Assembly: GCA_037200925.1 (NCBI GenBank)
Contig: JBBCGO010000001.1
Span: 139,552 to 177,821, forward strand
Direction: 5' to 3'
From: Candidatus Doudnabacteria bacterium
GTDB taxonomy: Bacteria > Patescibacteriota > Doudnabacteria > UBA920 > O2-02-FULL-48-8
DNA length: 38,270 nucleotides
A program made the position numbers and the translations under genes. Each line of letters opens with the position of its first letter. Positions within the stretch are counted from its first letter, which is position 1. The notes beneath the pieces are model-generated. The model did not search any database and had not been told where the DNA came from. It worked only from the letters and a program-made list of their open reading frames with translations. Positions 620-14,591 of this stretch are shown here, in pieces.

Positions 620-1309
620 TGGAAATTAAGGATAAAGTTTTTATTTTGACGGGCGCCGCACGGATCGGCGTGGATGTGGCCAAGGAATTGACTGCGAGAG
701 GAGCAAAGTTTGACCCACGACATATCTTACCACCGAATCAGACGTCGGCGATCTGAAGATCAAAGCGGACGTATCCAAACCCGACGAAGTTGCAAGAGTG
801 GTTTCTGAAACTAAGGCAAAATTTGGCCGAATAGACGGACTGATCCACATGGCAGCGATCTACCAAAAGACCCCGTGGAAATCCTTGGCTGAAGCGGACT
901 GGAATAAAAATATGGATGTGATCGCAAAGAGCGCGTTTCTAATGTCCAAAGCTGCCGGCGACGAGATGACGATAGGCGAAGATCATTCTTATCTCAGACT
1001 GGTCAGTTTTGACCCAGCCGTACAAAGATTATTTACCGTACAACGTGGCAAAAAGCGCCATTGAAGGTTTAACTAAATCGCTGGCCAAAGAATTGGCGCC
1101 GAAAATTATGGTCAACTGCATAGCACCCCGGCCCTATTCTGAAACCGGCGGATCTTTCGGATGCGGATAACGCAGAGGTTTTAAAAAATACCCCTCTGGG
1201 AAAATGGGGCGGCGCTCATGAGATCACTAAAGCGGTCTTGTATCTTTTGGATTCGGATTTCGTCACCGGGCAAATTTTGTACGTTGACGGCGGACGGTCG
1301 ATAGCTTAA
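619..1309 (+). pseudogene. Short-chain dehydrogenase/reductase (pteridine reductase/FolM-like), broken by frameshifts (pseudogene or sequencing error)
   Basis: Manual reconstruction across three frame changes (~709-716, ~978, ~1126-1129): MEIKDKVFILTGAARIG...ADVSKPDEV...GRIDGLIHMAA...KIILISDW...YNVAK (YxxxK)...VNCIAPGPI...FVTGQILYVDGGRSIA*. ATG overlaps the upstream stop (TAATG). Confidence 0.8.
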
Positions 1310-3520: not shown

Positions 3521-4326
3521 AAATAAACGTCGGCGGCGTAAATATTGACAATGTCACCAAATCAGAAGCGATCGAGAGAATTGATGGGTTCATCAAAAGC
3601 GGCGAACCTCACTACGTAGTCACGCCGTACTCGGAAATGATCGTTTTCGCCTCAAACAGCGAAAACTACCGCCAGGTTTTGAATGCGGCTGACCTGTCGC
3701 TCGCTGACGGGGTCGGAATTTTATGGGCGGCAAAATATCTCTCGCTTAAAAACACATTTTTTTCAGTGTTCATAAGTTTGGCTGCTATTGTTTTTGATCC
3801 CAATTATATCCGTTCCGTCATCCGCGAACAGATCACAGGCAGCCGCCTTATTTACGACTTGGCAGAATTAGCGCAAGAAAAAAATTATAGCGTGGCCCTA
3901 GTAGGAGGACAGGGAAATGTCGCAGCGCAAGCGGCCTATGAATTGAAAAAACTTTACCCAAACCTGAACATCAAGCTGGCGCTCTCTGGGCGGCCTTTTG
4001 ACGCACAGATCGTTAAAGAGATTACCGACAGCAATTCTGATATACTGCTAGTGGCCTACTCGCCGCCGAAACAAGAGATCTGGCTGGCCCAAAACCTGCA
4101 AAATTTGAACAATAAAGTGGCAATTGGGCTGGGCGGGACATTTGACTATCTGGCGGGAATTAGGCGGCCAGCGCCTAATTTTATGCATTATACGGGTTTG
4201 GAGTGGCTATGGCGGCTGATGACGCAGCCCTGGCGCTTCAAGCGGATGTGGAACGCGGTCCCTGTTTTCATTTGGAAGATCTATATATTTAAATTAAAAC
4301 ATAATGCCGCAAGAAGTACGAACTAG
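3517..4326 (+). CDS. WecB/TagA/CpsF family glycosyltransferase
   Basis: ADGVGI, YSPPKQEIW, IGLGGTFDYLAG..RPAP and GLEWLWRL..QPWRFKR motifs. Confidence 0.92.
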   Translation: MKINVGGVNIDNVTKSEAIERIDGFIKSGEPHYVVTPYSEMIVFASNSENYRQVLNAADLSLADGVGILWAAKYLSLKNTFFSVFISLAAIVFDPNYIRSVIREQITGSRLIYDLAELAQEKNYSVALVGGQGNVAAQAAYELKKLYPNLNIKLALSGRPFDAQIVKEITDSNSDILLVAYSPPKQEIWLAQNLQNLNNKVAIGLGGTFDYLAGIRRPAPNFMHYTGLEWLWRLMTQPWRFKRMWNAVPVFIWKIYIFKLKHNAARSTN

Positions 4327-5797
4327 ATTTGCCCCGAGCCCGACGGGATTTCTGCATGTTGGGGTGCTGCGCACCGCTCTGTATAATTTTTTATTTGCGC
4401 GGAAAAACAACGGCAAGTTTATTTTGCGAATTGAGGATACTGATCAGAAAAGAACGGTTCCCGGAGCTTTGGAAAACATCACTCAAACTCTGACTGATTT
4501 CACTCTCGTCCCGGATGAAGGCCCGTACTGGGAAAATAGCGTCAAAGAACGCGGCGACAAAGGCCCGTACTTCCAGTCAAAGCGCTTGGATATTTATAAA
4601 AAATTTGCTGAACAGCTGGTTGAAAGCAATCATGCCTATTTTTGTTTCTGTACGACCGAGCGGTTGGAGGAGCTGCACAAACAGCAGGAAGCAGCGCATG
4701 AACCTCCAAAATATGACAAGCTTTGCCTTAAGCTTTCAAAAGAAGAAATTAAAGCTAAGCTGGAAGCAAATCAACCGCACGTTATCCGGTTAAATGTCCC
4801 GGCTGACCAAAAGATCAGGTTTACTGATCTGGTGCACGGGGAAATAGAGATTTCCAGCAACGAGGTTGATGATCAGGTGCTTTTGAAATCGGACGGATTT
4901 CCGACCTACCATTTGGCGAATGTCATCGATGACCATCTCATGGAGATCACTCATGTCATCCGCGGCGATGAGTGGATCCCTTCCACTCCTAAACATATCT
5001 TATTGTACGCGGCTTTTGGTTGGGAATCTCCTCAGTTCGTCCATTTGCCTTTGCTTCTGTCAAAGACGCGGAAAAAATTATCCAAGCGCGAGGGAGATGT
5101 GGCAGTTAAAGATTTTCTTGAGCAGGGTTATTTGCCGGAAGCACTTTTAAATTTCGTCGCACTGCTTGGCTGGAATCCGAAAACCGAACAGGAAATTTTT
5201 TCGTTACTGGAGCTGGTCCAGCAGTTCTCGCTTGATAAAATAAACAAGGCTGGCGCCGTTTTTGACCTTGATAAACTGGATTGGCTCAACAGCATATACA
5301 TCAGGCGGATGAAGGTAGAAGAACTGTTCGCGCGGATCGTTCCTTATCTGGTCAAAGCGGGAATCAAAACAGCTGATTATCCGAAGGAATTCCTTGAAAA
5401 GATCCTGCTTCTGGAACAGGAACGGCTGAAGAAGCTGTCCGAGATAGGGGAGAGGGTCAAATATTTCTTTGAGGAGCCGAAATACGAGCCCGCTCTCCTG
5501 ATCTGGAAAAAATCCGACAAAAAAATAATTTTGAATAATTTGGAAAGTTTGCAGATTTTCCTGCAATCTTTGCCTGCAGAAAAATTCAAGAAAGAGATTT
5601 TGGAAGCTGAAGTCAAAAAATTCATTGAGACGAATCAGCTGAAAACCGGAGAAGTGCTGTGGCCCTTGCGAGCGGCTTTAACCGGACAGCAAGCCTCGCC
5701 CGGCCCTTTTGAGATCATGGATGCTTTTGCAGTTTTGCCCGGAGGCAAAGAAATCATCATAAAACGCATAAGCAACGCAACCGAAGCCCTGTTTTAG
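4304..5797 (+). CDS. gltX: Glutamate--tRNA ligase
   Basis: RTRFAPSPTGFLHVG (HIGH), LRIEDTD, HVIRGDEW, KKLSKR (KMSKS) motifs. Confidence 0.97.
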   Translation: MPQEVRTRFAPSPTGFLHVGVLRTALYNFLFARKNNGKFILRIEDTDQKRTVPGALENITQTLTDFTLVPDEGPYWENSVKERGDKGPYFQSKRLDIYKKFAEQLVESNHAYFCFCTTERLEELHKQQEAAHEPPKYDKLCLKLSKEEIKAKLEANQPHVIRLNVPADQKIRFTDLVHGEIEISSNEVDDQVLLKSDGFPTYHLANVIDDHLMEITHVIRGDEWIPSTPKHILLYAAFGWESPQFVHLPLLLSKTRKKLSKREGDVAVKDFLEQGYLPEALLNFVALLGWNPKTEQEIFSLLELVQQFSLDKINKAGAVFDLDKLDWLNSIYIRRMKVEELFARIVPYLVKAGIKTADYPKEFLEKILLLEQERLKKLSEIGERVKYFFEEPKYEPALLIWKKSDKKIILNNLESLQIFLQSLPAEKFKKEILEAEVKKFIETNQLKTGEVLWPLRAALTGQQASPGPFEIMDAFAVLPGGKEIIIKRISNATEALF

Positions 5798-5828: not shown

Positions 5829-5837
5829 ATGCGGACA

Positions 5838-7142
5838 ATGTTCAATTATTTGAAACAAAATAACAACTCATGGAAAACATTGATTTCATGCTTGCTGATT
5901 GTTGGCGTTGTTGTGGCTTTCAGCTCAGACCCTAAAGCCGCGGGTCAGACCGCTGATGATCTGTCCCAGCAAAAACAGGACAAGCAAGCGCAGCTGGATG
6001 CAGTTCTTAAAAAGATCGCCGATTATTCCACTGAGATCAAACAGGCCCAGTCCCAGGCCAACACGCTGAAAAACGCTTTGAACATCATAAATCTTCAGAT
6101 CGCGGAAACCACAGCCCAGATCGAAGCCACTTCCGACAAGATCGACGCTGCAAATCTGGAGATCGCCGATGTCACGGATAAGATCGTTCAAACCCAAGCC
6201 AGTATCGCTAAAGAAAAAACCGTCCTAAAGACCCTGGTCTCTGATATCAATGACCTGGACCAGCGCAGCCCTCTGGAAATTGCCCTGGAGAATGATAATT
6301 TTCAGCAATTTCTGGATCAGGTGCAGTATGTATCCTCTATCCAGGAGCAAAGCCAGGAGGCGCTGACGAAGATCAAGCAGCTCGAAGCTGATCTGCAGAT
6401 CCGCCAGGCAGATCTAAAAGCGGAAAAATCATCACTTGATGATCTTTTGGCTCAGCTTGACCTGACCAAATCCGGTCTTGCCGACCAGAGAACCCAAAAA
6501 CAGCAGATTTTGGACCAAACCAAAGGTCAGGAAAAAGCATACCAGAGACTGCTTACCGATTCACAAGGCCAGGAAGAACAACTGGCAAAAGAGATCAATG
6601 ATCTTGATGACGCGATCAGCGCCAAGCTCGGCAACAAGCGCTTGTCCGCCATTCATGGACTATTGGCATACCCGATGGAAGGTACGCTGACGCAAGGTTA
6701 CGGCAATACTGGTTTTACCGCCTTAGGCTATACGTTCCATAATGGGATTGACCTTGCAGGACCGCCCGGCACTCCTATTTATGCTGCCGGCGACGGGACT
6801 GTAGCCGCGACCGGCACCGGCTCAGGAGCTTACGGCAACTGGGTTGCGATCAAGCATGACACGGGAAAATTTGCAGCGCATCCGATCATAACTTTGTACG
6901 GCCATATGGAAAGCTTCCGGATGAGTACCGGCCAGACAGTAAAACTTGGCGACCTTGTCGGGTTTGAAGGCAACACGGGCAATACCACAAGGCTGCTTTA
7001 CGGGCCTCATCGCGGATACCATCTGCACTTCACCGTGTTCGACGCAGACGGATTTGGAGTTGCTGACGGAGCTTACCCAAAAATCTACGGCCCATACCAG
7101 GTGCCTTACGGCGCAACATACAATCCCCTAGATTTCCTCTAA
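5838..7142 (+). CDS. Secreted coiled-coil M23 family peptidase (murein hydrolase, EnvC-like architecture)
   Basis: Signal/TM segment, long heptad-rich coiled coil, C-terminal LytM domain with HNGID (HxxxD), YGHM and HLH (HxH) motifs intact. Confidence 0.9.
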   Translation: MFNYLKQNNNSWKTLISCLLIVGVVVAFSSDPKAAGQTADDLSQQKQDKQAQLDAVLKKIADYSTEIKQAQSQANTLKNALNIINLQIAETTAQIEATSDKIDAANLEIADVTDKIVQTQASIAKEKTVLKTLVSDINDLDQRSPLEIALENDNFQQFLDQVQYVSSIQEQSQEALTKIKQLEADLQIRQADLKAEKSSLDDLLAQLDLTKSGLADQRTQKQQILDQTKGQEKAYQRLLTDSQGQEEQLAKEINDLDDAISAKLGNKRLSAIHGLLAYPMEGTLTQGYGNTGFTALGYTFHNGIDLAGPPGTPIYAAGDGTVAATGTGSGAYGNWVAIKHDTGKFAAHPIITLYGHMESFRMSTGQTVKLGDLVGFEGNTGNTTRLLYGPHRGYHLHFTVFDADGFGVADGAYPKIYGPYQVPYGATYNPLDFL

Positions 7143-7162: not shown

Positions 7163-7190
7163 AAAGCCGACCAAGAAGGTCGGCTTTATT
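7163..7190 (+). terminator. Rho-independent terminator of the M23 gene
   Basis: AAAGCCGACC-aagaa-GGTCGGCTTT followed by T-rich sequence, 20 nt after the stop. Confidence 0.8.
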
Positions 7191-7224: not shown

Positions 7225-7285
7225 GCGCGCCATTTTACGACAAGAGGCTAGGGAACAGTTAAAACTTATCGTAACAATGGCGCGT
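7225..7285. repeat. Long imperfect inverted repeat (hairpin, 20-nt loop)
   Basis: GCGCGCCATT-TTACGACAAG (7225-7244) pairs with CTTATCGTAA-c-AATGGCGCGT (7265-7285). Confidence 0.8.
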
Positions 7286-7288
7286 ACG

Positions 7289-7332
7289 TTATGCGACAGC
7301 TTTAAAAGAAACTAATTTATGCTGTCGCATAA
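7289..7332. repeat. Perfect 12-bp inverted repeat with 20-nt spacer
   Basis: TTATGCGACAGC (7289-7300) and GCTGTCGCATAA (7321-7332). Confidence 0.9.
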
Positions 7333-7349
7333 GGTACATTGTGCGACTA
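7322..7349. other. Candidate dif-like tyrosine-recombinase site (11-6-11)
   Basis: CTGTCGCATAA-GGTACA-TTGTGCGACTA. The left arm shares CGCATAA with the E. coli XerC arm (GGTGCGCATAA), the spacer resembles TGTATA, and the arms are near-palindromic. Confidence 0.55.
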
Positions 7350-7581
7350 TGTCTTATTCTCGAATTAGGGCCTTTTAAGGCCTTACCCCCTAAACCCGTC
7401 GTTACCTGTTTTCCCGGCTTATATCAGAAAAGCTAACCTTATATTTTATATTTATTTCTATATCCCCTATAGAATTTTTGATAAACAAAATGGAACCGTT
7501 TATTTCATGAAACTTTGTAGCCTTATTACCTTGAAATTATAAACGTTGTATAATGCTTTACATATTATGAGGAGGTTCGGG

Positions 7582-7914
7582 ATGAGGCGTCCAAACCTTG
7601 GCCTAAGCAGATTTGCGGGAAACGAAAGGTTGAATTCCGCCAGCAGACTGTCGGAACAAGTCCTTTGGGAGGCTGAACAACGGGCACATCCTGACGACCC
7701 TTCGGTCATCGTGCTGGAGCGAATAAAGAGGCTTTCGACGCGGGAAGGCACACTCGCGAATCTACTTCGTCAGCTGCTGACCGCAGAAGACATAAAAGAC
7801 CTCGATGCCGCAATTCCGTCGCTTACCGAGCGTTGCGCACGCTCCGGCAGAAAGATCAAACGAAGCCACGTCAGGCTTACGCTATCGCAATTGAAAGAAG
7901 AAGCAGGCTTATAG
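7582..7914 (+). CDS. Hypothetical protein (110 aa from the Shine-Dalgarno-supported ATG)
   Basis: AGGAGG 6 nt upstream of ATG 7582; fills an otherwise empty interval; no family recognised. Confidence 0.55.
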   Translation: MRRPNLGLSRFAGNERLNSASRLSEQVLWEAEQRAHPDDPSVIVLERIKRLSTREGTLANLLRQLLTAEDIKDLDAAIPSLTERCARSGRKIKRSHVRLTLSQLKEEAGL

Positions 7915-10175: not shown

Positions 10176-10571
10176 TCATCGGCTTGATTTCCTAAATCCC
10201 GCGGCCTTGGCTTCAGCTTCCGTGGTAAAACAGCGGATGGGATGAGTTGTCTTATTATAAAAAGCTCCGCCGGGCATATGGTATATCATACTTGAGGAAC
10301 CTTTGATCTTTCCGGTGCAGTTCAAACTGCCTGAGCTATTGGGTGCCGCAACAGTTTTCGTGCTCGCAGATTGTATTGACGGCTCGTTTGGATTATAATT
10401 ATCAGGTATTGAGGCCGCTTGCTCAATATGTACTTGCGACACCGATGGTTGAACCGGAGACTTTGGTGAAGAAAATCTGCCCAGTCCGAATGCAAGCACC
10501 CCGACTAGCACATAACCTACTGACAATACGATTATGTGTTGGTGGGTTTTTATATAATCTTTCCAATTCAT
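10176..10571 (-). CDS. Membrane-anchored protein with C-terminal Ada-like metal-binding domain
   Basis: N-terminal TM, Pro/Ser linker, IKGSSSMIYHMPGG.FY...CFTTEAEAKAAGFRKS. Confidence 0.75.
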   Translation of the reverse strand: MNWKDYIKTHQHIIVLSVGYVLVGVLAFGLGRFSSPKSPVQPSVSQVHIEQAASIPDNYNPNEPSIQSASTKTVAAPNSSGSLNCTGKIKGSSSMIYHMPGGAFYNKTTHPIRCFTTEAEAKAAGFRKSSR

Positions 10572-11915
10572 ATGCAGTATGCCTTTATTTTAGGGAGGGT
10601 ATATACGCTGTCCTTGGCCGAGCTCCTTGGCGTTTTAGCATTGCTCGGAGTAACGTCCAAAGTTTTGGCATGCTCGCCCGAGGTGGTAGTGATCGAAACG
10701 GACAAACCTCTTAGTGCTGACTCGCTTCAGGCCCGTTTGGGCGGAACCATTAAAATTATACGCTTATTCGACACTTTTCAAAAGAAAGGCAAGGAATACC
10801 CCACGGCTGTTCTGACCAACTATTTCACTTTTAAACGCATAAAAGAATATTTCCACGAATACACGGGCAAGAAACAATTCGGCGTGTCCATCTATTCGCT
10901 GGATCCCGCTATCCGGTTTCGCGAAGAACCGACCAGGATCGCTTTTTTGATAAAGAAAATTTTACAGGACCAGGCGCAAAGCGTGCGGGCGGTCCTTCCT
11001 CAATTCCCCTCTCAAGCTTTGTCCTCGGTCCAGGTCACGGAAAATCAGCTGCTGCAAAAGGGCGCTGAGGTTGTGGTCATCTCCGGCAATCAGCGCATCT
11101 TTGTCGGTAAAACTCTTGTGGTGCAAAACTACGAAGATTACGGCCGGCGCGATTATCAAAGACCGGCCAGGGACGAGAAGGTCGGCATGATCCCGCCGAA
11201 AGTGGCCCAGACCATGATCAATCTGGCCGGACCGCTCAAGCCCCTGGAATTTATTTTAGATCCGTTCGCAGGCTCGGGTACGATCCTGCAGGAAGCAATT
11301 CTTATGGGCTACCGCGCCATAGGCTCGGATATTGAACAGAAGATGATCGAGAACAGTGAAAAAAATCTTGAATGGTTTCGAAACCGTTATGATGTGGCTC
11401 CAAACCGATACAAACTGTTTAAGGCCAATGCTGCTGAAATTTCCATTCAGATACCCAAGCAAAAAGTGGCGGCTGTCGTGACTGAAGGTACCTTGGGCCC
11501 GATCTACGGAAAATTGCCGAAAAAAACTGAAATGCAAAGTAATTTTAAAGCCTTAAGCAAACTTTATGACCAGGTCTTCAAAGAGTTTAAAAAATTCCTG
11601 GCAGAGGGCTCGAAAGTAGTTATCTGTCTGCCGGCATATAAGCTGAACATGTCTGACTATGATTTCATGCCGAATCTTGACTTTATAGCCGAAAACGGGT
11701 ATATTGTTCTGGAACCTTTGCCGGAATATTTAACAGTGAAATATAAGTTTCTGAAAGTTACGCCGAGAAGATCGATAATTTACGACAGAAATGACCAGCT
11801 GGTGGCAAGGGAAATATTCATGATCCAGTATGGTAAACAAGAAAATAATCAGGAAACTGTAATAGAAAACGCGGATGCGTTGGAGACAGGATCCGAAGAG
11901 AAAGGGTTGGAATAA
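10572..11915 (+). CDS. SAM-dependent RNA methyltransferase (Trm11/UPF0020-like)
   Basis: RDYQRP.RD..VGMIPPKVAQTMINLA, ILDPFAGSGTILQEA, GSDIE, VVTEG.LGP. ATG 10572 preferred over GTG 10536, which would overlap the divergent gene. Confidence 0.8.
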   Translation: MQYAFILGRVYTLSLAELLGVLALLGVTSKVLACSPEVVVIETDKPLSADSLQARLGGTIKIIRLFDTFQKKGKEYPTAVLTNYFTFKRIKEYFHEYTGKKQFGVSIYSLDPAIRFREEPTRIAFLIKKILQDQAQSVRAVLPQFPSQALSSVQVTENQLLQKGAEVVVISGNQRIFVGKTLVVQNYEDYGRRDYQRPARDEKVGMIPPKVAQTMINLAGPLKPLEFILDPFAGSGTILQEAILMGYRAIGSDIEQKMIENSEKNLEWFRNRYDVAPNRYKLFKANAAEISIQIPKQKVAAVVTEGTLGPIYGKLPKKTEMQSNFKALSKLYDQVFKEFKKFLAEGSKVVICLPAYKLNMSDYDFMPNLDFIAENGYIVLEPLPEYLTVKYKFLKVTPRRSIIYDRNDQLVAREIFMIQYGKQENNQETVIENADALETGSEEKGLE

Positions 11916-12057
11916 TACTGTTTTTACGAAAAAATTGAGTCGCAGTCCAGCTCTTGCACGCAAGGGCTGGGCGAGAACAATTTTTTCGGGAGGAGCAGTA
12001 TGGATACCGTAGCGTATTTGCGAAGCAAATCGCGAAGTGTATCCCCAACTGCGACGA
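11916..12057 (+). promoter_or_regulatory. Structured 5' leader of rpmA (candidate cis-regulatory RNA)
   Basis: Nested stems 11927-11937/11978-11988 (perfect 11 bp), 11947-11956/11961-11970, 12002-12007/12039-12044, 12016-12021/12025-12030; alternative pairing 11939-11946/12048-12055. Confidence 0.5.
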
Positions 12058-12336
12058 ATGGCTCATAAGAAAGCCGGCGGCTCTACAGCTTTAGGCCGGG
12101 ATTCGCAATCACAAAGACTAGGCATTAAATTATTCGGCGGCCAAACTGCCAAAGTTGGCTCAATTCTGGTCCGCCAGCGCGGCACCAAATGGCATGCCGG
12201 CAAAAATGTCCGCAAAGGCTCTGACGACACGCTCTATGCCGCTTCGATCGGCACCGTAAAATTCACAGGAAAAAAAGTCCGCGGCTTTGACGGCAACTTG
12301 CATCACCGCCGTTTTGTTCACGTAATTTCAAAATAA
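12058..12336 (+). CDS. rpmA: 50S ribosomal protein L27
   Basis: [48 protein letters not shown]. Confidence 0.97.
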
Positions 12337-12368
12337 ACCGCTTTCCTCTAAAAATTTCGGGAGGAACA

Positions 12369-12725
12369 ATGTTTGTTGACAAAGCCTTGGTCAATATTGC
12401 CACGGTTGTGGTGGATATTACGCCGCTGCAAGCCATCCAGATCGCCGGCACCAAAAAAGAGCTCGCGCGCACACTTCAGAAAACTTCTGACCTGTCCAAG
12501 ACAGGCAACTTTGAGAATTCCCGGGTCATGCTCTGCACAAATGCGCATTTGCACCGTCACGGCAACGAGCCGAATTTCCGCTACCAGATACAAGGATCAA
12601 GCCGAGAGGTCTCTCAGATAATCAGCCTGTTGGAGCTGGGCGAAACGAAGCTGTTCAAGTTTCAAAGGCCTAATTTCAATACGGCGACCCCGCAAACTTC
12701 GTCCACTACGCAAGACATTGCCTAG
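12369..12725 (+). CDS. Hypothetical protein (118 aa)
   Basis: GGGAGG Shine-Dalgarno site upstream; no family recognised. Confidence 0.6.
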   Translation: MFVDKALVNIATVVVDITPLQAIQIAGTKKELARTLQKTSDLSKTGNFENSRVMLCTNAHLHRHGNEPNFRYQIQGSSREVSQIISLLELGETKLFKFQRPNFNTATPQTSSTTQDIA

Positions 12726-12726
12726 G

Positions 12727-12760
12727 AACCCTTCCCTGCTTCCCGAAGCCGGGTTTTTTA
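12727..12760 (+). terminator. Possible Rho-independent terminator
   Basis: AACCC...GCTTC/GAAGC...GGGTT nested imperfect stem followed by a T run. Confidence 0.4.
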
Positions 12761-12799
12761 TTTGCCAAAGACTCCGTTTAATGCTTAAATAAGCTTAGA

Positions 12800-13342
12800 A
12801 TGAATTGTCCGAACGGGCACAAATTAGATCAGCAGATATCGCTCGGCGCAGTCAAAGTCGGGCGCTGTTCCAAATGCCTGGGATTATGGTTCGATCAGGA
12901 TGAATTGAAAAAAGCCGAAGACAACCAAACCGATTATGTCGGCTGGTTTAATGATGAGCTCTGGGATGATCCGAATAATTTTAAAGGCGCCAAAGGGACC
13001 CGTGTTTGCCCCAAAGACAGCTCGGCTTTGTATAGTGTTCGTTATGGCGACTCCGATATTGTCATTGATGTTTGCCAAAAATGCCATGGCATCTGGCTGG
13101 ATAAAAACGAGTTTGATAAGATCGAAGAATGGCTAAAGGGCAAATCATCTTACGATCTGCTCAATAATTATTTTAAAACTCTAGTGCACGCGGGAAAAGA
13201 TATTTTTACCGGTCCTGAGGATCTGAAATCCGAACTGCATAATTTTATGATCGTAGCCAAATATCTCCAGTTCCGATTGGTTGCCGGCAGCCCGGGATTG
13301 ACAAATCTTCTGATCAATCTGCCCCTGACTCCGGAATTGTAA
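12800..13342 (+). CDS. Protein with two TFIIB-type zinc-ribbon (zf-TFIIB) domains
   Basis: CPNGH...RCSKCLGLWFDQDEL and CPKD...DVCQKCHGIWLDKNEF repeats. Confidence 0.85.
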   Translation: MNCPNGHKLDQQISLGAVKVGRCSKCLGLWFDQDELKKAEDNQTDYVGWFNDELWDDPNNFKGAKGTRVCPKDSSALYSVRYGDSDIVIDVCQKCHGIWLDKNEFDKIEEWLKGKSSYDLLNNYFKTLVHAGKDIFTGPEDLKSELHNFMIVAKYLQFRLVAGSPGLTNLLINLPLTPEL

Positions 13343-13350
13343 TTTATAAG

Positions 13351-13379
13351 TTGCAAAAGTTGGCGTTTAGTGTTTTAAT
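13351..13379 (+). promoter_or_regulatory. Possible sigma70 promoter TTGCAA-N17-TTTAAT
   Basis: Correct spacing and extended TG, upstream of ATG 13412; -10 box imperfect. Confidence 0.45.
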
Positions 13380-13411
13380 ATCAATAATGATTAACAAATA
13401 ATCAACAATAT

Positions 13412-14548
13412 ATGAAGAAAATAGCTATTTTGAGCCTTGCTTTGCTGGCGTTTGCGTTTACGGCATCGGCTGCGGAATTTATTCAACCACCGAGCAAAAT
13501 GCAGGGAAGCGTGTCCACAATGGAGCAGGATGTTCATAAGAACCTGTATATCGCAGGAGCCAATGTCACTGTAAACAGCAAGACACTGGACGATCTGGCT
13601 GCAGCCGGAGGAATGGTCACGATCAACGGGGATGTGGAAAAAGATCTTCTTCTGGCGGGAGGCAATCTGACCGTAAACGGCGCTGTGGGAGATAATGCGC
13701 GGATCGCTGGCGGCAATATTTCTATCAGCGGCCCGGTTTTGGGCGATCTTGTTGTAGCGGGCGGAAATATTACTGTCGCAGAGAAAGCAACAGTCGGCGG
13801 TGATTTGGTGGTCGGCGGAGGAAATATCACGGTTGACTCTGACATCAAGGGCAATGTGAAGATCGGCGGCGGAGCTGTCATGATCAACAGTACTATCACC
13901 GGCAATGTGGATGTCATGGCCAACAAAAGCCTGACCTTTGGCCCAAACAGCGTTGTAATGGGCAGGATCGTTTATAAAGGCCCAAGCGAGGCAATAATCC
14001 AGGACGGCGCCAAAGTCAGCACAATTGATTTTACAATGATCGCCTCTAGAAATGTCGCAGGCAAAATTGCGGCTTTGATCACAATAGCAACTCTGATCAA
14101 ATTACTGGCATTATTTATCGCCGCCTGGGTGCTCAACAGGATTTTCAAAGGAACTTTCCAAACTTTATCCGAGCATATCTATGCCAAACCCTGGCATAGT
14201 ATGGGTATCGGCGCATTGGTTCTGTTTGGCGTTCCGCTCCTCGCTGTGATCCTGATGATCACGGTTCTGGGCTTATACCTGGGACTCTTTCTGCTCGTAT
14301 CCTACTGCTTGATCTTATTGACCTCAGCCTTGCTGATGCCTTATTTTGTCGGCGCATCTGTGGTAGCCATGTATAACAAAACTTCCAATCTCAAACTTGG
14401 CTGGCAGGAACTGGTCTACGGCTTGCTCATCGTCACGCTTGTAGGATGGATCCCGTTCATCGGCTGGCTGGCTGTGCTTCTGGTGTACCTGATGACGATC
14501 GGGGAAGTCGCCCTTCATTCTCTTCAAAAAGAGCACATAAATATTTAA
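13412..14548 (+). CDS. Membrane protein with bactofilin/polymer-forming-like beta-helix and C-terminal TM bundle
   Basis: Signal peptide, repeated (L/V)xxAGG(N/M)(V/I)T(V/I)NGxV units, then 4-5 hydrophobic helices. Confidence 0.8.
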   Translation: MKKIAILSLALLAFAFTASAAEFIQPPSKMQGSVSTMEQDVHKNLYIAGANVTVNSKTLDDLAAAGGMVTINGDVEKDLLLAGGNLTVNGAVGDNARIAGGNISISGPVLGDLVVAGGNITVAEKATVGGDLVVGGGNITVDSDIKGNVKIGGGAVMINSTITGNVDVMANKSLTFGPNSVVMGRIVYKGPSEAIIQDGAKVSTIDFTMIASRNVAGKIAALITIATLIKLLALFIAAWVLNRIFKGTFQTLSEHIYAKPWHSMGIGALVLFGVPLLAVILMITVLGLYLGLFLLVSYCLILLTSALLMPYFVGASVVAMYNKTSNLKLGWQELVYGLLIVTLVGWIPFIGWLAVLLVYLMTIGEVALHSLQKEHINI

Positions 14549-14559
14549 AATTACGCAAC

Positions 14560-14591
14560 AAAAAACCGCCCCGGATTGGGGCGGTTTTTTT
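14560..14591. terminator. Bidirectional Rho-independent terminator
   Basis: AAAAAACCGCC...GGCGGTTTTTT between convergent genes. Confidence 0.85.

Follow-up and report, generated by a model that had tools for sequence, protein, structure and literature searches.

The window analysed here is the whole 38,270-nt stretch of DNA from Candidatus Doudnabacteria bacterium, and all coordinates given below are positions within it. Together with its flanks, the window encodes fmt, def, gltX, an M23 peptidase, cysteine desulfurase, L27 and CTP synthase, as well as FtsEX, RF2, thyA, folA, gyrB and pheST. This is the gene content of a small housekeeping chromosome of a CPR bacterium, not of a phage, and the nearest relatives among the loci compared are labelled Saccharibacteria or Patescibacteria. 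Exact protein matches put the window, in reverse orientation, on the 964,444-bp contig JBBCBH010000057.1 of assembly GCA_037975565.1; by conversion of coordinates, the 28-base candidate site described below is at 335,518-335,545 of that record. The features that bear on the argument are the following.

4304-5797, + strand: gltX, glutamyl-tRNA synthetase gene, recognized by its Pfam families and located upstream of the M23 gene
5829-7142, + strand: M23-domain peptidase gene (Pfam PF01551, residues 303-404 of the protein)
7163-7187, + strand: intrinsic terminator of the M23 peptidase gene, a 10-bp stem followed by a T-rich tail
7289-7299, no strand assigned: third arm copy TTATGCGACAG, a perfect reverse complement of the left arm of the candidate site
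7322-7349, no strand assigned: candidate dif site of 11-6-11 form (left arm 7322-7332, centre 7333-7338, right arm 7339-7349)
7323-7353, no strand assigned: 31-nt block TGTCGCATAAGGTACATTGTGCGACTATGTC, invariant in an alignment of the window, L005 and L003
7567-7914, + strand: orf115, immediately to the right of the 28-mer; 110 aa if the start is at 7582
13980-14590, no strand assigned: skew maximum and orientation switch (per-base maximum at 13,980; genes switch at 14548/14590)

The 28-mer reads CTGTCGCATAA-GGTACA-TTGTGCGACTA (left arm, centre, right arm) and was found at exactly the position, 7322-7349, that an earlier note on this DNA had claimed for it. An assembly artefact can be dismissed, since an identical 28-mer is found when the organism is assembled independently from short reads (L002). 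The site is intergenic, lying inside the 424-nt spacer that runs from the M23 peptidase gene to orf115, and no open reading frame of at least 60 aa extends across it. Its form is that of a dif site, i.e., about 28 bp made up of two 11-bp arms with partial dyad symmetry and a centre within the 6-8 bp range, with likeness to the consensus; the two arms differ at 1 of the inner 9 positions. The pattern GTCGCATAA-N6-TTRTGCGAC has a single match in the window, which is the 28-mer itself, even with 3 mismatches allowed. It should be noted that inverted repeats of comparable geometry are common in this DNA: there are 60 of the 11-6-11 type in which 8 or more of 11 positions are complementary (47 in shuffled sequences), and 11 of the 9-6-9 type in which 8 or more of 9 are (4 in shuffles). 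Taken without conservation, the 11-6-11 geometry is within chance and not significant. The significance of the 28-mer comes from its conservation in other genomes.

The genes on either side differ in how widely they accompany the motif. The M23 peptidase gene, which points at the 28-mer, is its commonest conserved neighbour: among the matches listed, 41 loci have an M23 homologue no more than 3 kb from the motif, oriented towards it every time. The N-terminal 300 residues of the peptidase are read as a coiled coil, which would make the protein EnvC-like. The second conserved neighbour is gltX, present near the motif in 27 of the loci listed. On the right, orf115, whose ATG at 7582 is preceded by AGGAGG, has no match in Pfam; its homologues form only two clusters among 5.8 billion proteins and occur in only three species, beside the site in each of them (syntenic in L003 and L005). 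By this distribution, orf115 is a lineage-restricted gene.

The earlier note had overlooked the third arm copy at 7289-7299, which together with 7316-7337 can form a 22-nt hairpin. This copy is present with 2 changes in L003 and absent from L005, so the strong hairpin that it permits is not conserved. Near the core, extra half-sites show no enrichment in 123 loci (0.30 per kb vs. 0.28 per kb elsewhere). The third copy is, as far as these comparisons reach, lineage-specific and outside the motif family. Two other hairpins were seen in the spacer, both without an Rfam match: one of 59 nt at 7226-7284 (GCGCGCCATT...AATGGCGCG), and another at 7367-7384 (GGGCCTTTTAAGGCCT), the latter roughly conserved in L003 and L005.

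The first line of evidence for a biological role of the 28-mer is its conservation in related genomes, where the earlier note had proposed that the motif be looked for and where it is found both at close range and across the CPR. When the spacers of three species (those of the window, L005 and L003) are aligned, the 31 nt at 7323-7353 are invariant and the remainder is poorly conserved; the neighbouring proteins of these species are from 51% (orf115) to 88% (GltX) identical. In a deep scan with GTCGCATAA-N6-TTRTGCGAC, in which each species was represented by one genome and the centre (N6) was left free, at least 120 species genomes, mostly of Patescibacteria (CPR), were matched, against a chance expectation of about 35 (by our arithmetic, 0.25^17 x 0.5 x 1.2e12 positions). 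The CPR groups matched are Moranii-, Magasanik-, Yanofsky-, Davies-, Berkel-, Woyke-, Falkow-, Uhr- and Colwellbacteria, Saccharibacteria and Minisyncoccota. Among the matches listed, the 120 loci belong to 120 different assemblies, i.e., there is one copy per assembly; the only double match among those listed, in L103, is a scaffolding artefact, its two copies bracketing a run of N.

The conservation of the arms within these at least 120 loci is partly built in, because the search pattern fixed 9 nt in each arm. The central hexamer was free in the search, and in 70 sites of the window's type it reads G-N-T-A-Y-A, with T14 in 84%, A15 in 87% and A17 in 96% of the sites. In the same 70 sites, R-Y fills the outer two positions of each 11-nt arm, and past the arms complementarity is no greater than in shuffled sequences. 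The family consensus is RY-GTCGCATAA-GNTAYA-TTGTGCGAC-RY. Thus, it is the sequence of the site, including its centre, that is conserved in related genomes, as for dif; with both sequence and centre conserved and pairing that ends at the arms, a protein-recognised recombination core fits better than a hairpin.

The second line of evidence is the position of the motif relative to nucleotide skew and gene orientation. Among the matches listed, 63 loci have at least 1.5 kb on either side of the site, and in these the mean GC skew is +0.056 in the left flank and -0.061 in the right. The left value exceeds the right in 56 of the 63 loci (Wilcoxon p = 5.6e-10), and in 35 of the 37 that carry a site of the window's (TTGTGCGAC) type; the polarity is kept in flanks 1.5-5 kb away from the site (26/31, p = 3.6e-5). 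Coding on the + strand amounts to 82% on the left and 24% on the right in the 63 loci, a result that is not fully independent of the skew test, since the two are confounded over short distances. In the 20 largest families of neighbouring genes, all members point at the site, with the exception of recombinase genes and two archaeal families that are more than 1.6 kb from it. Positive followed by negative skew, combined with converging genes, is the pattern of a replication terminus and not that of an origin. Only one complete genome is among the matches listed, CP175956.1 (1,286,331 bp); its site, at 684,649, falls 53% of the way along the sequence, a position that is informative only provided that numbering of the record starts at the origin.

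In the genome under study, the same analysis was carried out on a 55-kb composite of L166, the window and L168, which extends the window leftwards by 7.8 kb and rightwards by 8.9 kb. Cumulative G-C rises over 22 kb from -7.8 kb, with a plateau at about 5-11 kb, and then falls over 32 kb to +46 kb. The apparent skew shift point is therefore the region 13980-14590, its maximum being 6.6 kb to the right of the site, a distance equal to 0.7% of the 964-kb contig. Predicted dif sites lie within 0-1.39% of genome length from the skew shift point (one sigma), with outliers below 3% (Kono et al., PMC3025954); the present site is thus inside the published range. Genes are almost all on the + strand up to the site, mixed from 7.3 to 14.5 kb (with + genes at 7567-7914 and 10536-14548), and all on the - strand from 14,590, where an unbroken - run starts. 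This layout of genes and skew puts the site at the left edge of the convergence zone. A terminus location is therefore seen in the local skew over 55 kb, in the convergence in relatives and in the 53% position in CP175956.1.

These data refine several statements of the earlier note. It had placed a switch in gene orientation at the site itself; its count for the left side (6 of 9 genes on the + strand) is approximately right, but the true switch is at 14548/14590. Analogously, the cumulative GC skew that it had named as a check does, over the 55 kb, have a local maximum nearby, though not at the site. The note had also drawn attention to a KOPS-like octamer pointing towards the site. The octamer, GGGCAGGG, is indeed present at 2887-2894; however, the window contains two occurrences of GGGNAGGG where 3.4 are expected, a frequency at or below chance, so that the octamer carries no information. 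Polar FtsK-orienting sequences that converge on the site, together with an FtsK bearing a gamma domain, would be expected at a dif site; in the 55 kb, FtsK was not found.

Conservation across CPR classes extends to the genes around the motif. FtsQ is encoded there in 21 loci among the matches listed; genomes of the Microgenomates type have YebC-RuvC-DUF5656 beside the motif; and Saccharibacteria and Berkelbacteria have near it a 1034-aa coupling ATPase resembling TrwB/TraD, SecDF and a T4SS pilin. Division and recombination genes cluster at the terminus.

From sequence comparison, we consider it very probable that the 28-mer serves a Patescibacteria (CPR) bacterium as its chromosomal dif site, at which Xer would act at the terminus. 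The core of the earlier note's reading, a dif-like Xer site that marks the terminus, is thus upheld by the conservation in at least 120 genomes and by the convergence of skew and genes. According to this model, each 11-bp arm would be bound by one protomer of a tyrosine recombinase of the Xer family, and two sister sites would synapse at division; strand cleavage and exchange would follow at the two edges of the 6-bp centre GGTACA and convert a chromosome dimer into monomers. We infer binding and cleavage by this genome's Xer and coupling to division via FtsK or another factor, as we do the number of recombinases that act at the site.

The 11-6-11 architecture is common to the CPR site and to the 28-bp dif sites of XerC/XerD in Proteobacteria and of CodV/RipX in Bacillus. 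With the E. coli dif sequence taken from established knowledge, the 28-mer agrees with it at 16-17 of 28 positions: the inner left arm CGCATAA of the 28-mer is the inner XerC arm, the inner right arm has TTGTG where E. coli has TTATG, and the centre GGTACA resembles TGTATA. The right arm as a whole matches the E. coli XerD arm at just 5 of 11 positions. Whereas XerC/XerD sites combine a XerC arm with a distinct XerD arm, the CPR arms are nearly alike (GTCGCATAA vs. GTCGCACAA). Like classical dif, the CPR site is intergenic and located where skew and gene orientation converge, and it is present in single copy in the window and in each assembly listed.

Other systems offer further points of comparison. 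XerA of archaea acts without FtsK. The XerA-dif of Thermococcales has, like the CPR site, a 28-bp 11-6-11 form with few mismatches between the arms, and it occurs in single copy in the terminus region, not necessarily adjoining the xer gene (PMC2958812). Its level of match to the bacterial consensus is similar to that of the 28-mer, matches at 14-18 of 28 positions having been reported for validated archaeal dif sites (PMC2958812). The CPR site differs in its bacterial host and in a one-base asymmetry (TTG, not TTA) that is conserved across the CPR. In XerS-difSL and XerH-difH (PMC5357621), one recombinase acts, and the near-symmetric CPR site could likewise suit one recombinase; in some relatives (L082 and L024), the recombinase gene is linked to the site. 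However, difSL is 31 bp long with an 11-bp centre and always has xerS adjacent (PMC5357621), whereas the 28-mer has a 6-bp centre and no xer gene within 55 kb; it therefore does not belong to the XerS-difSL type. The arms of difH, AGTTATGAAAA (PMC5357621), are unrelated in sequence to those of the 28-mer, which is not a difH site either. The arms are nearly palindromic across the whole CPR group, and a single-recombinase system, as suggested by the earlier note, is plausible for this genome.

No tyrosine recombinase gene was found in the 55 kb around the site. Some relatives do have such genes near the site: L082 encodes an Xer-type protein of 314 aa at a distance of 716 bp, and L025 encodes one at 4.5 kb. 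The L082 protein scores 244.9 bits with the XerD model, 243.5 with XerC and 214.5 with XerA, all below the curated cut-offs, and with scores so nearly equal and below cut-off it can be assigned to neither the XerC nor the XerD paralogue. The recombinase beside the site in L024 obtains its top score with the XerA model. Orthologues of the L082 protein are 75-80% identical across many Daviesbacteria, which makes the Daviesbacteria Xer look like a housekeeping enzyme; a search with a CPR Xer gave at least 120 matches, those listed being Daviesbacteria-type orthologues without exception. When loci were reached via the Xer protein and not via the motif, two of three proved to carry the motif (L169 and L171; in one of them it has a single mismatch), in a position immediately downstream of YebC-RuvC-DUF5656 and 4.5-6.8 kb from xer. 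In the third, L170 of Daviesbacteria, the motif is absent at the syntenic place after DUF5656 (L170:895-2757). A gene for a 336-aa tyrosine integrase is found there instead; large hypothetical genes occupy about the next 7 kb, and the conserved xer comes after them. The arrangement may represent an insertion at or near dif.

In 9 further loci, mostly outside the CPR and with perfectly palindromic arms, a tyrosine recombinase gene is likewise found at a distance of 69-400 bp from the motif. Loci of this kind are L024, L031, L054, L078, L079, L091, L113 and L123, all palindromic except the CPR locus L024; L091 has three tyrosine recombinase genes near the motif. The non-CPR hosts are Bacteroidia, Chloroflexi, Thermacetogenium, Thermoanaerobaculum, Alkalibaculum, Isosphaeraceae and an archaeon. 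To judge by gene order, the non-CPR loci are recombinase-plus-site modules. Through such neighbouring genes, genomic context ties the motif to the Xer family.

Such modules also lend themselves to a different reading, according to which the 28-mer is the attachment site or the end of a mobile element with its own integrase and has no part in chromosome maintenance. The recombinase genes that adjoin palindromic versions, the motif on 33 phage contigs and the lineage-restricted orf115 next to the site all agree with it. Nevertheless, the CPR site occurs once per assembly, in conserved housekeeping synteny and at the convergence of skew, and usually has no integrase within 3 kb; the recombinase near the site in Daviesbacteria, with its high identity across species, looks like a housekeeping enzyme; and mimicry of the host site is the better explanation for the phage copies. 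We therefore regard a mobile-element origin as very unlikely.

An operator, bound by a dimeric transcription factor that controls neighbours such as the M23 peptidase, FtsQ or orf115, would account for the palindromic 9-6-9 core and its intergenic location, for the linkage to division genes in many genomes, and for the position of the site about 230 nt upstream of orf115 in this lineage. In relatives, however, the site is downstream of both neighbours, which point at it, and is thus not in a promoter region. The neighbours themselves vary by lineage (M23/gltX; FtsQ; RuvC-YebC-DUF5656; the T4SS coupling protein), there is one copy per assembly among the matches listed, the motif is found on phages as well, and a conserved asymmetric hexamer suits a recombination core better than an operator spacer. 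An operator is, in our opinion, a shade less likely still.

The least probable reading is that of an RNA hairpin, acting either as an intrinsic terminator for both directions or as an attenuator, with 7322-7332 paired to 7289-7299 or to 7339-7349: a terminator scan does find a 9-pair stem at 7324-7347, both strands of the spacer fold well (z of about -3.8), three arm copies permit alternative pairings, and the motif lies between convergent genes in relatives, but sequence is conserved and not pairing alone, the "loop" included, complementarity ends at the 11-nt arms, TTTT tails are rare (behind 3 of 70 sites on one strand, 4 of 70 on the opposite one), alternative pairing would depend on an upstream copy that L005 lacks and that the family does not share, the M23 gene already has a strong terminator at 7163-7187, so that the 28-mer is not needed to end its transcript, Rfam has no match, and a single copy per genome is unlike terminators. 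The 28-mer thus does not correspond to an intrinsic terminator, which is defined by a GC-rich stem-loop with a U tract behind it and by a stem conserved as pairing, not as sequence. Searches of Rfam 15 gave no match at gathering thresholds and only chance-level hits at E-values up to 10, and ARAGORN found no tRNA or tmRNA. Two elaborations of the hairpin were also considered and rejected. A riboswitch or attenuator built from the three arms was ruled out, as the upstream copy is absent in L005 and half-sites are not enriched in the 123 loci; as for an extended hairpin with covariation, a few sites show 8-10 nt of additional palindromy, but over the 70 sites such palindromy is at shuffle level.

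Returning to the dif reading, the copies of the motif outside CPR chromosomes deserve comment. The 9-6-9 core is present in 33 viral contigs of IMG/VR (L133-L165). Four of these were sampled, and all are tailed phages, with a terminase large subunit in each; two of them also have a portal or head-tail adaptor. A further phage-like contig, L046, which is binned as "Peribacteria", has the motif at 4165-4188. In 3 of 5 phage contigs checked (L046, L143 and L160), the motif is within about 200 nt of a putative terminase gene, and no integrase is visible in most of the stretches of phage contigs examined. Motif copies on phages are to be expected if mobile elements exploit the host Xer site, and the tailed phages that bear the motif may be Xer-dependent integrating phages of CPR. 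In this respect, the viral copies look like dif mimics of the kind known from the attachment sites of IMEX (CTX-phi, VGJ-phi, TLC-phi and the gonococcal island). The window's site differs from these in being chromosomal and in housekeeping synteny, and the sampled phages are tailed (terminase, portal), not filamentous.

A perfectly palindromic version, GTCGCATAA-N6-TTATGCGAC, is found in MAGs of Marine Group II (Poseidoniales) archaea (L014, L016, L032, L033, L038, L045, L055, L056, L067, L072-L074, L083-L085, L102, L107, L115-L117, L126 and L131). The context is fixed in these MAGs and consists of an amidohydrolase, a 111-aa ABM-domain protein and zinc-ribbon-like proteins. Skew converges in 21 of 26 loci with palindromic arms, about half of which are Poseidoniales MAGs. 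The palindromic version may be the dif of Poseidoniales archaea.

These observations can be combined into a wider proposal, which we put forward tentatively and consider possible but rather doubtful. Throughout the Patescibacteria, a single undifferentiated Xer would act on a near-palindromic dif, RY-GTCGCATAA-GNTAYA-TTGTGCGAC-RY, located in a conserved terminus neighbourhood (EnvC-like M23 peptidase, FtsQ, RuvC), and tailed phages that carry mimics of it beside the terminase gene would integrate via the host Xer without an integrase of their own. In that case, these phages would represent a class of IMEX hitherto described chiefly for filamentous phages and genomic islands.

Since Xer-dif systems are familiar, a dif site in one more bacterium is unsurprising. 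A full-text literature search, however, found no paper that treats CPR taxa together with dif, Xer or chromosome dimers, so the CPR dif consensus is apparently undescribed. In practice, one short motif search would mark the terminus, which should be instructive for the curation and orientation of fragmentary CPR genomes, and the motif could be used to test whether long CPR contigs are complete replicons. The near-symmetric arms raise the question of whether the whole lineage has a single Xer, and the phage-borne copies that of whether CPR phages integrate through it.

Two observations concern the records themselves. Eight of the contigs (L020, L034, L095, L103, L119, L120, L122 and L130) are titled "uncultured Gammaproteobacteria bacterium"; their FtsQ, M23 and gltX proteins and their dif-type site group with CPR-labelled contigs, and by this grouping the Gammaproteobacteria labels look like misassignments. 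Separately, comparison of the long contig (L001) with L002 reveals indel errors in the former, at window positions 798-1064 and 1609-2227. As a result of such indels, fmt is split (171 aa, vs. 304 aa in the short-read assembly) and a short-chain dehydrogenase is reduced to a fragment; to the left of the window (L001 1356-3566), the genes for a PBP and an Asp/Glu racemase are truncated relative to L002. The split and truncated genes of the long contig are assembly frameshifts, not pseudogenes.
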